A DNA stretch of 14,499 nt from a virus. Lineage: Duplodnaviria; Heunggongvirae; Uroviricota; Caudoviricetes. The notes beneath the pieces are model-generated. The model was not told where the DNA came from, did not search any database, and saw only the letters and a program-made list of their open reading frames with translations. Below, piece after piece: positions 6,990 to 12,378 of this stretch (positions are counted from its first letter, which is position 1; each line of letters begins with the position of its first letter). The DNA lies in the IMG/VR virus record IMGVR_UViG_2617270990_000006, one strand, 5' to 3'. The position numbers were made by a program, and so were the translations under genes.

Positions 6990-7676
6990 TCACTCCTTCT
7001 CTTCTTTTCCGTAGTGGAGTTGGCCAATTTTGATAAGAGGGCGTCCCTGAGATTTGCGGTGTAGATTGGTATCGCGCAGAGAATACACACAGCCACAATA
7101 TTCCTGCTGATAGAATTTTTCGCGCTTGCTGATTTCAATCATACGGGACGAGCCGCCCTGCTTGCGCCAGTTATAATCCCAGTACACCATACCCGGATAA
7201 TGCGCAACAGCTCGCCGCCCACACTCGTTAACCTGCTGCATATTTTTCCAGCGTGAAATGCCCAGTGAACTGCTGATCACACTGAAACCATTTTCAGCAG
7301 CGTACAACGCTGTCCGCTCAAAACGCATGTCAAAACACATGGTACAACGGATCCCCCTCTCAGGCTCCCATTCCATTCCTTTGGCACGTTCAAACCAGTT
7401 GTCGGTGTCGTAATCAGCATCGATAAACGGCACGCCGTGTTGTTCAGCAAAGCGAATATTTTCATCCTTACGAATTAAATACTCTTTCTGAGGATGAATG
7501 TTCGGGTTGTAGAAAAAGATGGTGTAGTCGATTCCCGAGGCCTGAAGCGCCTCCATCACTTCACCGGAACATGGAGCACAGCAAGAGTGCAGTAGTAGTT
7601 TGTTTGCCCCGTTTGGGAGTTCCAATTTAGGCCGTTTGAAATCAGCAATAGTCATAAATATTTTTATTGGGGTCAT
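6990..7676 (-). CDS. QueH-like protein (DUF208, epoxyqueuosine reductase family)
   Basis: 228 aa. N-terminal [13 protein letters not shown] and C-terminal YCGCVYS conserved Cys motifs as I recall for QueH/DUF208. AT-rich like the neighbouring R-M genes. No convincing SD at either candidate ATG (7676 or 7655). Confidence 0.7.
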
Positions 7677-8240: not shown

Positions 8241-9011
8241 TCACTTTTCCGACACAATACGACCGGATGAATCGACAATCTGTCGAACAATATCCCGGTG
8301 CTTGTACAGCTCCCGCAGCGCGGCGCAGACTCGCTCCCACTTCTGAACCTGACCTTTTGCCCGGCGCAGCTCGCGGTTAGCCACATGCAGCGATGGTAAA
8401 ATCAGACCATCCGGATGTTTTCTGGTGAACGACGGCTGTGACTGCACTGTGACCGCCACACTTTCAGTTTTTATTTCTTCCTGTGTTTCCGCTTCCCGGA
8501 CAGGTAACGCAATACCTGCTGGCTGAGGAATGGCTTTACCATCCGTTTCCGCTACGGATGCAGCTTCCGGCTCTGCCGGTAAATCAGCGCCCGGTATGCA
8601 GTAACGAAATTTACCGTTCTGATTTACGCGTGCCAGGCGCCCCGTTGCTGTTACGACCGCCAACGTGGAAGCAACCTTGCGAATGCTAACACCGAACTTA
8701 TCCGCCAGTTCCTCACACGTTTTAGCCCCATCCTGACAGATAAACTCAATCATCATGTCCGCGGTAACTTTTTGTTCGACCTCCCCGGTCAGCATATCCT
8801 GTGCTTCAGATTTTACTGGCCGCTCTTCGGTTACCCGGGATTCACCTTCGCCAGCCAGAAACCAGGTGTGACCAGTTTTATCAACGACGCCATTTCTTTT
8901 GAGTTCCCACAGCTCGTTGACAGCCTCTTCACGACTGATTCCAAGGCGAGCTGCCACCACATGTGAAGAGGCTTTTTTCAGTGCTTTCAGTGCGTCAAAT
9001 ACGGTTTCCAT
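8241..9011 (-). CDS. Hypothetical protein with two winged-helix-like domains (256 aa from ATG at 9011)
   Basis: The track start at 9029 is TTG; the ATG at 9011 has GGAGG 8 nt upstream. Two HTH-like segments (AARLGISREEAVNELWELKRNG and EELADKFGVSIRKVASTL), an acidic linker and a basic C-terminus. Confidence 0.55.
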   Translation of the reverse strand: METVFDALKALKKASSHVVAARLGISREEAVNELWELKRNGVVDKTGHTWFLAGEGESRVTEERPVKSEAQDMLTGEVEQKVTADMMIEFICQDGAKTCEELADKFGVSIRKVASTLAVVTATGRLARVNQNGKFRYCIPGADLPAEPEAASVAETDGKAIPQPAGIALPVREAETQEEIKTESVAVTVQSQPSFTRKHPDGLILPSLHVANRELRRAKGQVQKWERVCAALRELYKHRDIVRQIVDSSGRIVSEK

Positions 9012-9044
9012 TAATATTTCCTCCGACAAAATCGTTTCTCAGAT

Positions 9045-9707
9045 TCAAATAAAACCAGCTGCCTTCCGGCGTTCGTATTCCTGTTTCAGCCGTTCAATTG
9101 GCGTTGGCCCTTGCGGGTGTTTCGCCCCTTCCAGTTGTCGTCGCACTGGCGGAACACTCATCCCGTTACCAACATGCTTTGCCCATTTCGTCAGTTGCCG
9201 TTCCGCAAGTCGTTTTAACTCACCCTGCGTCATCTGGCGCTCAATCCCTCTGGTACGCATTTCGAGGCAGATGTGGTACAGCACAGGCTGTGGCCACGGG
9301 TATTTATCACTCCCGTCGTATCGCCAGGATTCATTGCGCCAGCGCCGGTACTCTTCCATCACTGCATCCACCGTAAGACCAAATGGATTTGCCCCACTCT
9401 CCGAAATCAGTGCAACAAACTCAGCCAGGTCCGGGGGCCACGTTTCACCCGCCCGGCAGCGGTCCATGCACTGACGGCAGACCAGCCGGATTTGCTGTTC
9501 AGTCATCGCGCCAATCTGGGCAATCCAGAGCTTCGAAGGTGCGGCCCCGTTCTTCTGTGTCCAGCGGTTCGAATACACCTCCCCCATAAGCTCCCACAGC
9601 TTCCAGGCCGTTTCCGTTGCTGATAAATCCGTTGTCACGTTCCCACTGTTCGCGTGCTGCCCGGATTTCCTGAACTGCCCGTGATGCCGTGCCACCTGAT
9701 GCTGCAT
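9045..9707 (-). CDS. Replication protein P-like (helicase loader)
   Basis: 220 aa. ATG at 9707 with AAGGGGG SD 6 nt upstream. WPPDLAEFVALI, YPWPQPVLYHICL and MTQGELKRLAERQL resemble lambda P (PSPGQFVAWC, YPWKSNAHYWL, LTDAELRRKAADEL as recalled). Overlaps the O-like ORF by 209 nt out of frame. Confidence 0.6.
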   Translation of the reverse strand: MQHQVARHHGQFRKSGQHANSGNVTTDLSATETAWKLWELMGEVYSNRWTQKNGAAPSKLWIAQIGAMTEQQIRLVCRQCMDRCRAGETWPPDLAEFVALISESGANPFGLTVDAVMEEYRRWRNESWRYDGSDKYPWPQPVLYHICLEMRTRGIERQMTQGELKRLAERQLTKWAKHVGNGMSVPPVRRQLEGAKHPQGPTPIERLKQEYERRKAAGFI

Positions 9708-10515
9708 GGCTTACCCCCTTGCTGACTGGTTTTACCTGTGCCCTGACGTGCTGCACGTGGCGGGCAAATTTCTGCTCCCACTGAACCTGCGTGAAAACCT
9801 TCCCCTCCGCCATCCAGTAATCCCGGAATGCGGCAAGCTCTGCAGGTGTAAATTCCGGCTCAGGCAGAGCCATACCCCACACTGCTGCCCGTTGTCGAAA
9901 ATCCGACGACAGCTGCCAGACAGTAGTCATCGAAAATTTCCCGATCGGTTCGCTCAGGCCGTCCAGGTATTCAGGTTCGGCTGTCTGCAACGGCGCACCA
10001 TGCGACTCACCGGTTGGAGCACTCTCGCGCATGCGCGCGTTATGTGTGGGGTTTAATTCTGTATCTGTATCTTTATCTGTCGTGACTTGTCGTGACATGT
10101 GCGTGACATTTCGTGACGCGCCGTGACAATCGCCATTTTGTTCCCGCTTTCTTTCCCTCTCACGCTGCGCCCTCTTGCGCTCTGCCGGAGATTTTGCGGT
10201 TTGCGAAATATTGCCGTTGTCCTCTTTAAGCACCTGGCGTTTTTCCCATCCAGTGATTAAATCACCATCAAGTACCCGCCCCTGCATCGTCTGCAAAATT
10301 GAATCAATTACCTCTTCTGTCACGTCGAGCGCACTTGCCAAATCTTCTGTCGTGACATCAATGTGACCTCGCGTGACATTTCGTGACGCGCTCACCAGGA
10401 GGTGGATATACACTGCCATCACTGTTGCAATTGGCTGCCCTGACACCCTGGCAATTGTTCGCCACTTAGGGTCATTTGGCATGTCATGCCATAATCTGAG
10501 CCAGGCGTTAGCCAT
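9499..10515 (-). CDS. Replication initiator (O-like) with origin iterons inside the coding sequence
   Basis: 338 aa from the ATG at 10515 (AAGAGGTG SD); the track start at 10521 is GTG. Two clusters of phased CGTGAC repeats fall inside the gene and encode a repeated ASRNVT peptide. Sits between the cII-position gene and the P-like gene. Confidence 0.65.
   Translation of the reverse strand: MANAWLRLWHDMPNDPKWRTIARVSGQPIATVMAVYIHLLVSASRNVTRGHIDVTTEDLASALDVTEEVIDSILQTMQGRVLDGDLITGWEKRQVLKEDNGNISQTAKSPAERKRAQRERERKREQNGDCHGASRNVTHMSRQVTTDKDTDTELNPTHNARMRESAPTGESHGAPLQTAEPEYLDGLSEPIGKFSMTTVWQLSSDFRQRAAVWGMALPEPEFTPAELAAFRDYWMAEGKVFTQVQWEQKFARHVQHVRAQVKPVSKGVSHAASGGTASRAVQEIRAAREQWERDNGFISNGNGLEAVGAYGGGVFEPLDTEERGRTFEALDCPDWRDD
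10081..10127. repeat. Iteron cluster A: five CGTGAC repeats phased 10-11 bp (candidate ori)
   Basis: CGTGAC at 10081, 10091, 10102, 10112 and 10122. Preceded by an AT-rich stretch (10050-10080) and the palindrome CGCGCATGCGCG (10026-10037). Confidence 0.6.
10351..10391. repeat. Iteron cluster B: four (C/T)GTGAC repeats phased 10-11 bp
   Basis: Repeats at 10351, 10362 (TGTGAC), 10372 and 10382. The 21-mer GCGTGACATTTCGTGACGCGC at 10371-10391 is an exact copy of 10101-10121. Confidence 0.55.
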
Positions 10516-10586
10516 ACTCACCTCTTCTGATACCGAATCTTTTTACTCACGAGTTGCCGGAAGCGATTCGATATGGCTATTGTCAG

Positions 10587-11012
10587 TCAATGTACTGCCA
10601 CAGCATTTCCTGCCGGGCCACCACGGTTCATCTGATTGAAACCGGCGATTGCCACTGCGACAAAATCATCAGCGTCTCTCACCAGTCGCTCCCGCGTCTC
10701 CACCAGCTCCCGAAAATAAGCTGAACTGTGGCTGCGCATTCTGGCCACCAGCAAAGGTGGCATTGCCTTTTCGATCGCTGGTAACAACGCCTGAATTTTT
10801 TCAACTGCATCAGGGGTGTCTTTCTCTACCCAGCGGAAAATTTTCTGGGTATTACGGGCCAGGGCTTCCGGATGGCTGTCGTCGTACAGTTCCGGGAACG
10901 TCATCCCCAGTTCGAAATAAGTCCGGGCTATTTCAGCTGCTGGAACTTTCTCACCGTCTGGATACGCCCAGGCATTCATTGCCATGCGGATGTGTTCATG
11001 CTTGATTTTCAT
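10587..11012 (-). CDS. ydaT: cII-position regulator, YdaT-like
   Basis: 141 aa (E. coli YdaT is ~140 aa). ATG with GGGGGTGA SD; overlaps the cro-like gene by 17 nt. Assigned by position and length, not by remembered sequence. Confidence 0.5.
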   Translation of the reverse strand: MKIKHEHIRMAMNAWAYPDGEKVPAAEIARTYFELGMTFPELYDDSHPEALARNTQKIFRWVEKDTPDAVEKIQALLPAIEKAMPPLLVARMRSHSSAYFRELVETRERLVRDADDFVAVAIAGFNQMNRGGPAGNAVAVH

Positions 11013-11271
11013 GAATCACCCCCGCCTCTGGTTGTGTGTTAGCCTGATACTCGACAGGTAAGCCGTCGGTTGGGTTGGGATAAGTACTGCCATCAATCTC
11101 GTGCGGAGTTACTATCCAGCCTGTTGCTTCGCACCAGCGTAAAATTTTTTTCCCCGTAAGTTTCGCCCGTCCGGTAATGACATGGCTTACCATCCCTTGG
11201 GTTACCCCAACAATTTCAGCAAAATGCTTCTGAGTTATACCGGAATGATGCAAATATTCTCCAAGATTCAT
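10996..11271 (-). CDS. ydaS: Cro-like HTH regulator (YdaS-like)
   Basis: 91 aa. ATG with GAGGTG SD. HTH segment GITQKHFAEIVGVTQGMVSHVITGR. Divergent from the repressor gene across the operator region. Confidence 0.6.
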   Translation of the reverse strand: MNLGEYLHHSGITQKHFAEIVGVTQGMVSHVITGRAKLTGKKILRWCEATGWIVTPHEIDGSTYPNPTDGLPVEYQANTQPEAGVIHENQA

Positions 11272-11283
11272 TGTTCACCTCAT

Positions 11284-11345
11284 GTGATGTCATCACGATC
11301 ATTAATAGCATTGTTATTTTTAAAAGTAAATAGCATCACTATTTC
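11284..11345. promoter_or_regulatory. OR-like operator/promoter region between cro-like and repressor genes
   Basis: Two AATAG-N5-CTATT-type sites (11304-11318 with one mismatch, 11331-11345) 27 bp apart, plus a 13-bp palindrome GTGATGTCATCAC (11284-11296). Candidate minus-strand promoter TTTACT-N17-TATTAA (plus 11325-11330 and 11302-11307) overlaps the sites. Confidence 0.55.
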
Positions 11346-11378
11346 AAAGAGATTAATAATCTTATTAGAATTGAAGGT

Positions 11379-11879
11379 ATGAAAAGAAAATCCCTGTCAG
11401 AGATCGACCTGCAAGCCGCCCAGAGACTGAAAGAAATCTGGACGGCGAAAAAAAATCAACTAGGGTTAACCCAAGAGCGTGCGGCAGAAATTCTGGGATT
11501 TTCGACACAGGGAGCTGTAAGCCATTATCTAAATGGTCAGACACCTTTAAATCTTGAGGCTGTTATCAAGTTCGCAGGGTTGCTGCAAGTTCCTCCCGAG
11601 TCAATCAGACCAGATATGGCCGAGTTGTTACAAATTGTAAGGATGTATCCCCAAGAATCTGGGGAGGACAATGTTGTCACTATATCTGCAGATATGGAAC
11701 AATCGGAAAACGAACTTCCGTTTAATATAGACCCCATGGAGCGGGATTTGCTCCAGACGTTCAGGGCTTTCCCCAAAGAAGATAAAGAGAAAATGCTTAA
11801 GGAAATGAAGGAGAAAAAAGAATCAATTGAAGAAATCGTTGCGCGATGGCTAGCTGCGCAAAAGGGTCGTCGCGCCTAA
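11379..11879 (+). CDS. paaR: Prophage repressor, HTH-XRE type without a LexA-like cleavage domain (PaaR-like)
   Basis: 166 aa. HTH LGLTQERAAEILGFSTQGAVSHYLNGQ. C-terminus is acidic/Lys-rich with no Ala-Gly or Ser/Lys peptidase motifs. First gene of a three-gene operon in the cI position. Confidence 0.7.
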   Translation: MKRKSLSEIDLQAAQRLKEIWTAKKNQLGLTQERAAEILGFSTQGAVSHYLNGQTPLNLEAVIKFAGLLQVPPESIRPDMAELLQIVRMYPQESGEDNVVTISADMEQSENELPFNIDPMERDLLQTFRAFPKEDKEKMLKEMKEKKESIEEIVARWLAAQKGRRA

Positions 11880-11896: not shown

Positions 11897-12088
11897 ATGA
11901 GTACAGCCCTTTCCCCGATAATTTCTGAATTTGAAACAGTCGAACAAGAAAACAGCTATAACGAATGGTTGCGAACCAAAGTGGCAGCAAGCCTCTCAGA
12001 TCCCCGTCCTGCAATTCCACATGACGAAGTAATGGCTGAAATGGAAAACCTTATTGCTCAATTAGCTGCAACGAACAGGAGTGAGTAA
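11897..12088 (+). CDS. paaA: Antitoxin of the ParE toxin (PaaA-like)
   Basis: 63 aa. GAGGAGG SD 7 nt upstream. Stop overlaps the toxin start (TAATG). Length and context match the PaaA2 antitoxin of the paaR2-paaA2-parE2 system as recalled. Confidence 0.65.
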   Translation: MSTALSPIISEFETVEQENSYNEWLRTKVAASLSDPRPAIPHDEVMAEMENLIAQLAATNRSE

Positions 12089-12378
12089 TGCTGCCCATTT
12101 TATGGCTACCTTCTGCACGTGATGATTTACGTCAGATCGTAGCCTATATTGCTAAGGAAAACCCTCCCGCTGCACGTAGACTAAAAATACGCATTGAAAC
12201 ATCAGTTTTGTCACTTACTGAACACCCTTATCTGTACCCACCGAGCGAAAGAGTTCCAAGTCTTCGTGAGATAGTGACTCATCCTAACTACATAATACTT
12301 TACCGAGTAACAGCATCTAACATCGAGATCGTAAATGTAGTTCACTCACGAAGACAGTATCCAAACAAAACCTGTTAA
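12088..12378 (+). CDS. parE: ParE/RelE-superfamily toxin
   Basis: 96 aa. ParE-like pattern: WLPSARDDLRQIVAYIAKENPPAARRL ... LREIVTHPNYIILYRV ... IEIVNVVHSRR. AGGAG SD; coupled to the antitoxin. Confidence 0.85.
   Translation: MLPILWLPSARDDLRQIVAYIAKENPPAARRLKIRIETSVLSLTEHPYLYPPSERVPSLREIVTHPNYIILYRVTASNIEIVNVVHSRRQYPNKTC

Follow-up and report, generated by a model that had tools for sequence, protein, structure and literature searches.

The window (the whole stretch of viral DNA analysed, 14,499 nt; all positions below refer to it) belongs to a lambdoid prophage of Escherichia coli. Over its gene region it shares 99.9% identity with the chromosome of STEC strain 2013C-4991, in which the prophage adjoins potC; this region was matched in 2,556 of 5,426 complete E. 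coli genomes, including O157:H7 and other STEC prophages. Four genes follow one another on the minus strand: a cro-like HTH gene (10996-11271), a cII/YdaT-like gene (10587-11012), a replication initiator gene (9499..10515; 338 aa) and an ORF encoding a lambda-P-like helicase loader (9045..9707). A cI-like repressor gene (11379-11879) is divergent. The initiator gene is defined by its ORF and translation, and the same CDS is annotated by RefSeq in E. coli 2013C-4991; it carries both repeat arrays described below. The P-like ORF overlaps the 3′ end of the initiator gene: the start given by RefSeq is 9506, and the frame is open to 9707. Its assignment is based on Pfam (PF06992, Phage_lambda_P, E=1.3e-15), PHROG_109, RefSeq ('replication protein P') and a frame-conservation analysis.

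The initiator is predicted to comprise a winged-helix N-terminal domain, a disordered linker and a DnaT-like C-terminal domain, a lambda-O-like logic. An AlphaFold2 model was built from 47 homologues. The winged helix is modelled with confidence (helices 29-45, 56-63 and 67-77; loop 46-55; wing 78-86); the linker (aa ~99-180) is predicted to be disordered. The protein is placed in the PHROG 1408/3729 'replication initiation protein' families. A Pfam scan of the 338 aa gave a single match, to DnaT (PF17948; aa 194-260; E=8e-15), and none to Phage_rep_O, the lambda O family; the initiator is therefore not a homologue of lambda O. The DnaT-like ssDNA-binding domain (aa 187-262; NCBIfam PRK02854 DnaT, E=2e-25) is encoded by 9730..9957 of the minus strand. 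It superposes on residues 84-153 of E. coli DnaT, which have a three-helix ssDNA-binding fold (4ou6; Foldseek, TM 0.91, 56% identity). The full-length DnaT equivalog cut-off was missed (89 vs 201 bits), and the C-terminal domain is best read as a domain relative of DnaT, not as DnaT itself. For the N-terminal domain, the replisome-organiser model TIGR01714 gave a sub-threshold match (15.6 bits for a cut-off of 49.8; E=0.014) that is aligned end to end (initiator aa 5-125 on profile positions 1-119). PHROG 4880/5968 'replisome organizer' profiles matched with E=3e-4 to 3e-3, and relatives of the protein are named 'phage replisome organizer' by RefSeq. Foldseek with the whole-protein model gave only generic winged-helix matches for this domain (E>1).

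Array B (10081..10127, minus strand; gene nt 389-435) consists of five direct units with the core (T)GTCACG on the gene strand. All five CGTGAC repeats that an earlier note on this DNA had reported at 10-11 bp phasing were located; on the plus strand they start at 10081, 10091, 10102, 10112 and 10122 (spacing 10/11/10/10), that is, one unit per helical turn. This array encodes aa 130-145, in the predicted disordered linker. Array A (10351..10387, minus strand) consists of four direct units, read on the plus strand as CGTGAC at 10351, 10372 and 10382 and as the variant TGTGAC at 10362. The description of a second cluster of four, about 270 bp away, is thus correct for the 5-bp core GTGAC (10352, 10363, 10373, 10383) but not for the hexamer, of which there are three. 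In the protein, array A corresponds to aa 43-55 of the winged helix, where helix 1 ends and the H1-H2 loop follows. Units of both arrays are direct and 10-11 bp long, with a 6-bp core; directly repeated, evenly spaced short units beside an AT-rich region are the general features of iterons. The window was simulated 1000 times with a second-order Markov model, and GTGAC never occurred more than 3 times within 60 bp, against the 5 and 4 copies of the real arrays.

An inverted core, GTCACG (10319..10324, plus strand), was overlooked in the earlier note. In gene orientation, array A is followed after 33 bp by this core, which encodes D64-V65-T66 and is present in most homologues (GTGAC at gene nt 193). 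The order on the gene strand is: array A, 33 bp, inverted unit, ~190 bp, array B, AT tract, palindrome.

The AT-rich tract noticed beside the first repeat cluster directly adjoins array B (10052..10080; 76% A+T; GATAAAGATACAGATACAG... on the gene strand) and is a candidate DNA-unwinding element. It encodes DKDTDTELN. The lowest GC of the gene (0.325) is found in the 40-bp window at 10040. No AT tract lies alongside array A. In most homologous loci, the AT maximum of the gene (the most AT-rich 30 nt) starts 3-27 nt past the last unit of array B, and it reaches 73-90% A+T even where the gene as a whole has 31-40% A+T (GC-rich hosts). The length of the tract differs among relatives by hexamer or 12-bp steps.

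The homologues were collected in two ways. An N-domain query of one-genome-per-species bacterial assemblies gave 38 loci, which include Shigella, E. albertii, Serratia, Rahnella, Pantoea, Enterobacter, Pseudomonas, Bordetella, Acidovorax, Aquitalea, Chromobacterium, Gilvimarinus, Marinobacter and Sphingomonas. Phage relatives were added by an independent retrieval (tblastn): P. aeruginosa phi1, Aeromonas pAEv1818, Ralstonia Firinga, an uncultured podovirus and Microcystis Mwe-JY25. The phage-database relatives have all been sequenced recently and are uncharacterised. Of the six peptide patterns with which loci were retrieved, two overlap the arrays; WHDMPNDP, however, does not vary among the aligned members of the family (L043, a truncated fragment, being left out), so that sampling of the loci is independent of the arrays. 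Arrays were scored with a strict detector: the same 5-mer at 9-12 bp phasing, at least three in a row in region A and at least two in region B.

The two-array layout was found in 30 of the 43 homologues (31-100% aa identity; Gammaproteobacteria, Betaproteobacteria and phages) and in none of 860 codon-shuffled controls. The earlier note had called two separated clusters unusual. The clusters are real; they are, however, a conserved hallmark of this initiator family and not a quirk of the window. Thirteen homologues fail the strict two-array detector. In six of them (L020, L026, L029, L031, L034, L038) both regions still have a common core, but its copies are irregularly spaced or of mixed orientation. 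No clear arrays were found in L032, L035, L039 and Microcystis phage Mwe-JY25; the initiator protein can thus exist without array A. Array B keeps 3-5 units among the homologues, and array A has about as many, in the same orientation, in nearly all lineages. The distance between the arrays differs (about 211-350 bp), and no constant helical phase between them was found among the homologues. Indels are concentrated in the loop encoded by array A, where 7, 14 and 22 aa are inserted in different homologues; in an O157:H7 prophage, a 21-bp (7-codon) insertion gives six units instead of four. A search of the complete 40-kb genome of phage Evi for a third array (at least three cores in 60 bp) found no other cluster.

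Four core types occur; each is present in both arrays and practically missing elsewhere in the gene. The majority of the genes have GTCACG. GTAACG is found in Pantoea, Enterobacter, Marinobacter and Sphingomonas; CGAACG in several Pseudomonas-type MAGs and the uncultured podovirus; GCAACG in Ralstonia phage Firinga (38% identity; gene nt 130/140/151/161/182 and 401/411/421/431). The core thus differs by lineage, and the change is seen in both arrays together. A finer case is found in Erwinia: the palindrome GTCACGTGAC is present in both arrays of L028, where its close relatives L026 and L029 have GTAACGTTAC at the same places. This is a symmetric double substitution, repeated in both arrays; such palindromic 10-mers are limited to one sub-lineage. 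Helix 3 and the wing were scanned for residues that follow the core type, and no position was convincing.

Selection on the DNA itself was examined in a codon alignment of 21 diverged genes of the GTCACG lineage. The codons of array A, from A43 to T55, are fixed at synonymous sites in the 21 homologues (V47 GTC 21/21; T48 ACG 21/21; G50 GGT 21/21; H51 CAC 20/20; V54 GTC fixed). The same holds for the inverted unit (V65 GTG, 18/18), for array B (S141 TCA 21/21; V144 GTC 21/21; H131 CAC fixed) and for the start of the AT tract (D147 GAT, K148 AAA, D149 GAT). Conserved residues outside the arrays use 3-6 codons each, with a top-codon fraction of about 0.3-0.6. The median top-codon fraction is 1.00 for the cores vs 0.50 (Mann-Whitney p=2.4e-8). 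When the protein of the window was recoded at random with synonymous codons, 2.2 ± 1.4 GTCAC resulted, against 9 observed. Both arrays are under selection at the DNA level.

An exact 21-bp repeat shared by the two clusters, each copy encoding ASRNVT, had also been pointed out, and both copies are indeed in the same frame of the minus-strand gene. GCGTGACATTTCGTGACGCGC is found exactly twice, once in array B (10101..10121) and once in array A (10371..10391); each copy contains two units, the copies are 270 bp apart, and none is expected in shuffles. Such a repeat could mean that the protein wants the peptide (SRNVT...), or that a recent internal duplication took place, the repeats having no DNA-level function. 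The in-frame copies with their common hexapeptide, and the restriction of exact 21-bp identity to the E. coli/Shigella lineage, fit this explanation. Its probability is nevertheless close to nil: the cores show no synonymous variation whereas other conserved codons are saturated, the part of the protein encoded by array B is a linker predicted to be disordered, and the layout is retained down to 38% identity, where the core is another one. The GTAACG lineage also keeps VT, encoded as GTA ACG in both arrays. The peptide-repeat explanation is rejected on the synonymous-site analysis and the recoding null, which largely refute it. The exact 21-mer has one mismatch in phage Evi and is absent from the O157 variant. 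Other lineages have two-unit identities of 17-20 bp between arrays A and B that are of different sequence, e.g. CGAACGCAACCGAACGCG and GGTAACGCAGGTGTAACGCA, which suggests that two-unit blocks are occasionally exchanged between the arrays. The peptide repeat follows from the DNA repeat being in frame (2 x 10.5 bp = 7 codons). The duplication and ASRNVT are a secondary result of in-frame DNA repeats and of probable exchange between the arrays.

The arrays travel with the N-domain. A mosaic joint lies inside the AT tract (10058..10076), where a module made of the N-domain and the arrays meets a module made of the C-domain and P. Matches in E. coli genomes are of two kinds, one over query 560-1023 and one over query 1-578 of the gene region, and the window, L003 and L004 have only ATAAAGATACAGAT in common at the joint. 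This pattern indicates that the two modules recombine inside the AT tract. Arrays are kept with three different C-terminal regions or loaders: phage Evi and strain PCN061 have another C-terminal region and no P gene; Firinga has a DnaB-like helicase; pAEv1818 has a DnaC-like loader. Where a DUF1376-type N-domain precedes the same DnaT-like C-module, no arrays are present. In E. coli the exchanged module also includes the cII/YdaT-like gene; among distant loci that keep the arrays, the upstream neighbours are unrelated.

The two arrays and the AT tract very likely constitute the vegetative replication origin of the prophage, embedded in its own initiator gene. The proposal of an origin within the initiator gene, made in the earlier note, is strengthened by the conservation of synonymous sites, the covariation of the cores and the AT maximum that follows array B. 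The lineage-specific covariation of the core in both arrays gives indirect support for binding by the cognate initiator. The arrays lie in DNA that encodes the N-domain; their co-occurrence is physical and is not independent evidence of binding by this domain. The cores could instead be recognised by something other than the initiator N-domain, be it a protein of the host, a further regulator of the phage or an mRNA-acting factor. Such a factor has a small probability; the N-domain is only the presumed binder, and the cII/YdaT-like gene is exchanged together with the module in E. coli. Against it stand the wholly different upstream neighbours of distant array-bearing loci, and core switches among close relatives living in similar hosts argue against a conserved host factor. 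Neither a DnaA box (one mismatch allowed) nor an IHF consensus was found in or near the gene. A role at the level of RNA or ssDNA structure is opposed by the direct repeats, which cannot pair together in RNA, by the Rfam search of 9000-11600 (E<=1), which gave nothing but a chance lncRNA match, and by the DNA folding of both array regions, in which no significant structure was found (z about -0.25). Internal promoters and terminators were searched for as well; the matches are consensus-level only and occur at chance rate.

For the origin embedded in the initiator gene, the following mechanism is proposed by analogy with lambda O at ori-lambda (PMC7466680), SPP1 G38P at oriL (PMC5737612) and iteron replicons in general. 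The winged-helix N-domain would bind along a single face of the DNA, taking one core in each helical turn. The complex formed on array B would destabilise the adjacent AT tract. Once this is open, host DnaB would be delivered to it by the DnaT-like C-domain and the P-like protein. Array A would be a second initiator-binding array; it could join the array-B complex by looping or wrapping of ~260 bp, and the larger complex would aid opening or helicase loading.

Such a positive role of array A in the origin complex is favoured, with a little less than an even chance, a negative or regulatory role being nearly as likely. In this main rival reading, which has a somewhat lower probability, the origin consists of array B and the AT tract, and the initiator binds array A for the purpose of control. 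The array might serve for titration or handcuffing, obstruct transcription of the distal initiator and P genes in an autoregulatory way, or halt forks and so render replication unidirectional. Extra iteron arrays serve copy control in plasmids P1, F and RK2, but negative copy control is of little obvious use in lytic phage replication. Two lambda iterons and the AT tract are enough for unwinding, and yet the distal iterons of Stx phages are needed for replication although they are weakly bound (PMC7466680). In SPP1, G38P bound at a second site is proposed to stall forks (PMC3485210). The missing AT tract alongside array A and the A-B distance without fixed helical phase are in keeping with a control element, and they weigh against a rigid loop. 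The size of array A, equal to that of array B, its shared orientation in nearly all lineages and its deep conservation weigh against a dispensable accessory. A stronger form of the positive role is put forward tentatively, as possible though somewhat improbable: an obligatorily bipartite origin, with arrays placed in the codons of the winged-helix H1-H2 loop and of the linker, concerted exchange of 21-bp blocks, and array A required in cis through a looped complex. With an obligatorily bipartite origin, the exchange of 7-codon blocks would let the evolution of binding sites directly rewrite the protein, and specificity switches (GTCACG, GTAACG, CGAACG, GCAACG) would hit both arrays at once.

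Origins within initiator genes are textbook knowledge for lambda, P22 and SPP1. The iterons of lambda are 18-19 bp long, partly palindromic and bound by dimers of O, whereas the units described here are direct, with 10-11 bp and a 6-bp core, and lack the dyad symmetry of lambda-type iterons. Here, unlike in lambda, a second separate array is found 260-270 bp upstream, inside the winged-helix coding sequence. The term lambda-like, applied to the locus earlier, suits the layout and the downstream P-like loader; it does not suit the initiator, which lies outside Phage_rep_O (DnaT being the only Pfam match) and has a C-domain with the DnaT ssDNA-binding fold. [quoted passage not shown] It extends to an iteron number that differs between relatives (4 vs 6; PMC7466680) and to the exchange of the N-domain and iterons as one module.

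In SPP1, oriL is made of iterons (AB boxes) and an adjacent AT-rich unwinding element inside gene 38 (PMC5737612), and the arrangement here is alike in that both features are embedded in the initiator gene. The N-domain match to TIGR01714, weak and below cut-off, and the PHROG replisome-organiser matches may point towards the same system, in which G38P also binds a second site. This site, oriR, is tens of kb from oriL and outside the organiser gene, whereas both arrays lie here within one gene; the partners also differ (G39P/G40P vs the P-like protein and host DnaB). Satellite P4 has, in ori and crr, two separate clusters of one short repeat that are served by one initiator and are both needed in cis. 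The separation of two clusters of the same short repeat is shared; the P4 clusters are ~4.5 kb apart and outside the relevant coding domain, and the alpha protein, a primase-helicase, is unrelated to the initiator described here. Iteron plasmids (P1 incA/incC, F, RK2) carry a second initiator-binding array outside the minimal origin. A second array of the same repeat is thus common to both; plasmid arrays are intergenic and serve the copy control of stable plasmids, whereas those described here are coding and belong to a phage lytic module. SaPI origins have penta- or hexanucleotide iterons recognised by a winged-helix domain, in two sets of variable number (PMC9371898), which resembles the present arrays with their proposed winged-helix binder. 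The two SaPI sets are oppositely oriented, one to each side of the AT-rich region, and are found downstream of rep (PMC9371898); the present arrays are intragenic, equally oriented and both to one side of the AT tract.

The searchable literature (subscription journals being outside its coverage) contained no binding or replication experiment and no origin description for this initiator family. The two-array layout appears to be new for the family, and its origin appears never to have been described before. The family (winged-helix N-domain, interchangeable C-domains) is common in E. coli and is also found in Pseudomonas, Bordetella, Aeromonas and Ralstonia phages. The comparison offers a map of two arrays with four natural specificity variants and natural variants of unit number, and may be used for the annotation of origins in prophages and for reading the diversity of replication modules in Stx and other lambdoid phages. 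The candidate unwinding tract would double as a recombination joint between modules. The frozen codons, the insertion-tolerant loop and the peptide repeat make the gene a clean case of a DNA-binding-site constraint dictating protein sequence.

Two minor features of the window are mentioned for completeness. A GTGAC pair at 8438/8449 has non-consensus flanks and is probably due to chance. The 12-bp palindrome reported next to the first cluster, CGCGCATGCGCG, is present (10026..10037) but is not conserved, being missing from the close homologues L002 and L003. It lies in the C-module, scores as a weak terminator-like hairpin without significant fold, and is probably incidental.

DUF1376/YdaU-type initiators, which include Rac-SA53 ydaU, carry an alternative N-domain on the same DnaT-like C-module as the window initiator. 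No GTCAC core (the gene-strand core of the phased iterons) is found in the N-domain of those encoded by the related loci L003 (1501-2511) and L044 (1600-2670). The cores are replaced there by repeats of the ATGTTCAAAC type: a direct pair and a single inverted copy are located immediately upstream of the shared GATAAAGATACAGAT tract, and an additional copy lies around gene nt 97. These repeats probably correspond to the DUF1376/YdaU-type initiator's own iteron set.

Some members of the window initiator's family differ in their repeats. The initiators of Serratia (L040) and Pantoea (L042) loci contain an insertion after the winged helix (aa ~110-170) that is similar to a GIY-YIG or T5orf172-type domain, and these loci carry ACTACG repeats in place of the usual arrays. 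In Ventosimonas/Entomomonas MAGs (L032, L035, L039) and Microcystis phage Mwe-JY25 (L047), loop length is unchanged relative to the family, no array A (the iterons located at 10351-10387 in the window) is recognisable, and a long (GATAAA)n tract is preceded by just 0-2 degenerate CGAACG-like units. The arrays of these four are either lost or too diverged to be recognised.

In the window, a 13-bp inverted repeat, GGCATG-A-CATGCC (10476-10488, gene nt 28-40), encodes the invariant WHDMP motif; the D11 codon is GAC in 20 of the 21 homologues. This inverted repeat may be a mere consequence of the single-codon residues W and M. Outside the initiator gene, the DUF1627 gene contains two GTGAC cores 11 bp apart (8438-8453, + strand), which share the orientation of arrays A and B (the two iteron arrays of the initiator gene). 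This pair is probably a chance occurrence, because its flanks, CTGTGACTG and CTGTGACCG, depart from the iteron consensus. The DUF1627 gene is uninterrupted in the window and split by an IS3 element in E. coli strain 2013C-4991.

The lambda-P-like ORF, predicted to encode a helicase loader, has 67 more open codons upstream of its RefSeq start (9506), and this extension overlaps the initiator 3′ end in a different frame (9499-9707, minus strand). Between the window and Rac-SA53, the first 26 overlapping codons show 7 changes in the P frame and 3 in the initiator frame; the last ~42 show 0 and 8, respectively. The true P start is probably upstream of the annotated one, which would probably lead to a dual-coding overlap with the initiator of about 130 nt or longer. 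PHROG_15931 resembles a fused O+P profile.

A RelB/RelE-type toxin-antitoxin pair (11897-12378, + strand, located by correspondence with L001, a related locus) lies immediately downstream of the cI-like repressor gene. Beyond it, the matching E. coli genome carries ydfA/B/C-like genes, with dicB farther along. Next to the replication module, the early region of the prophage holds a QueH-like epoxyqueuosine reductase gene (6990-7676, minus strand; PF02677, E=1e-65); such cargo is unusual there.
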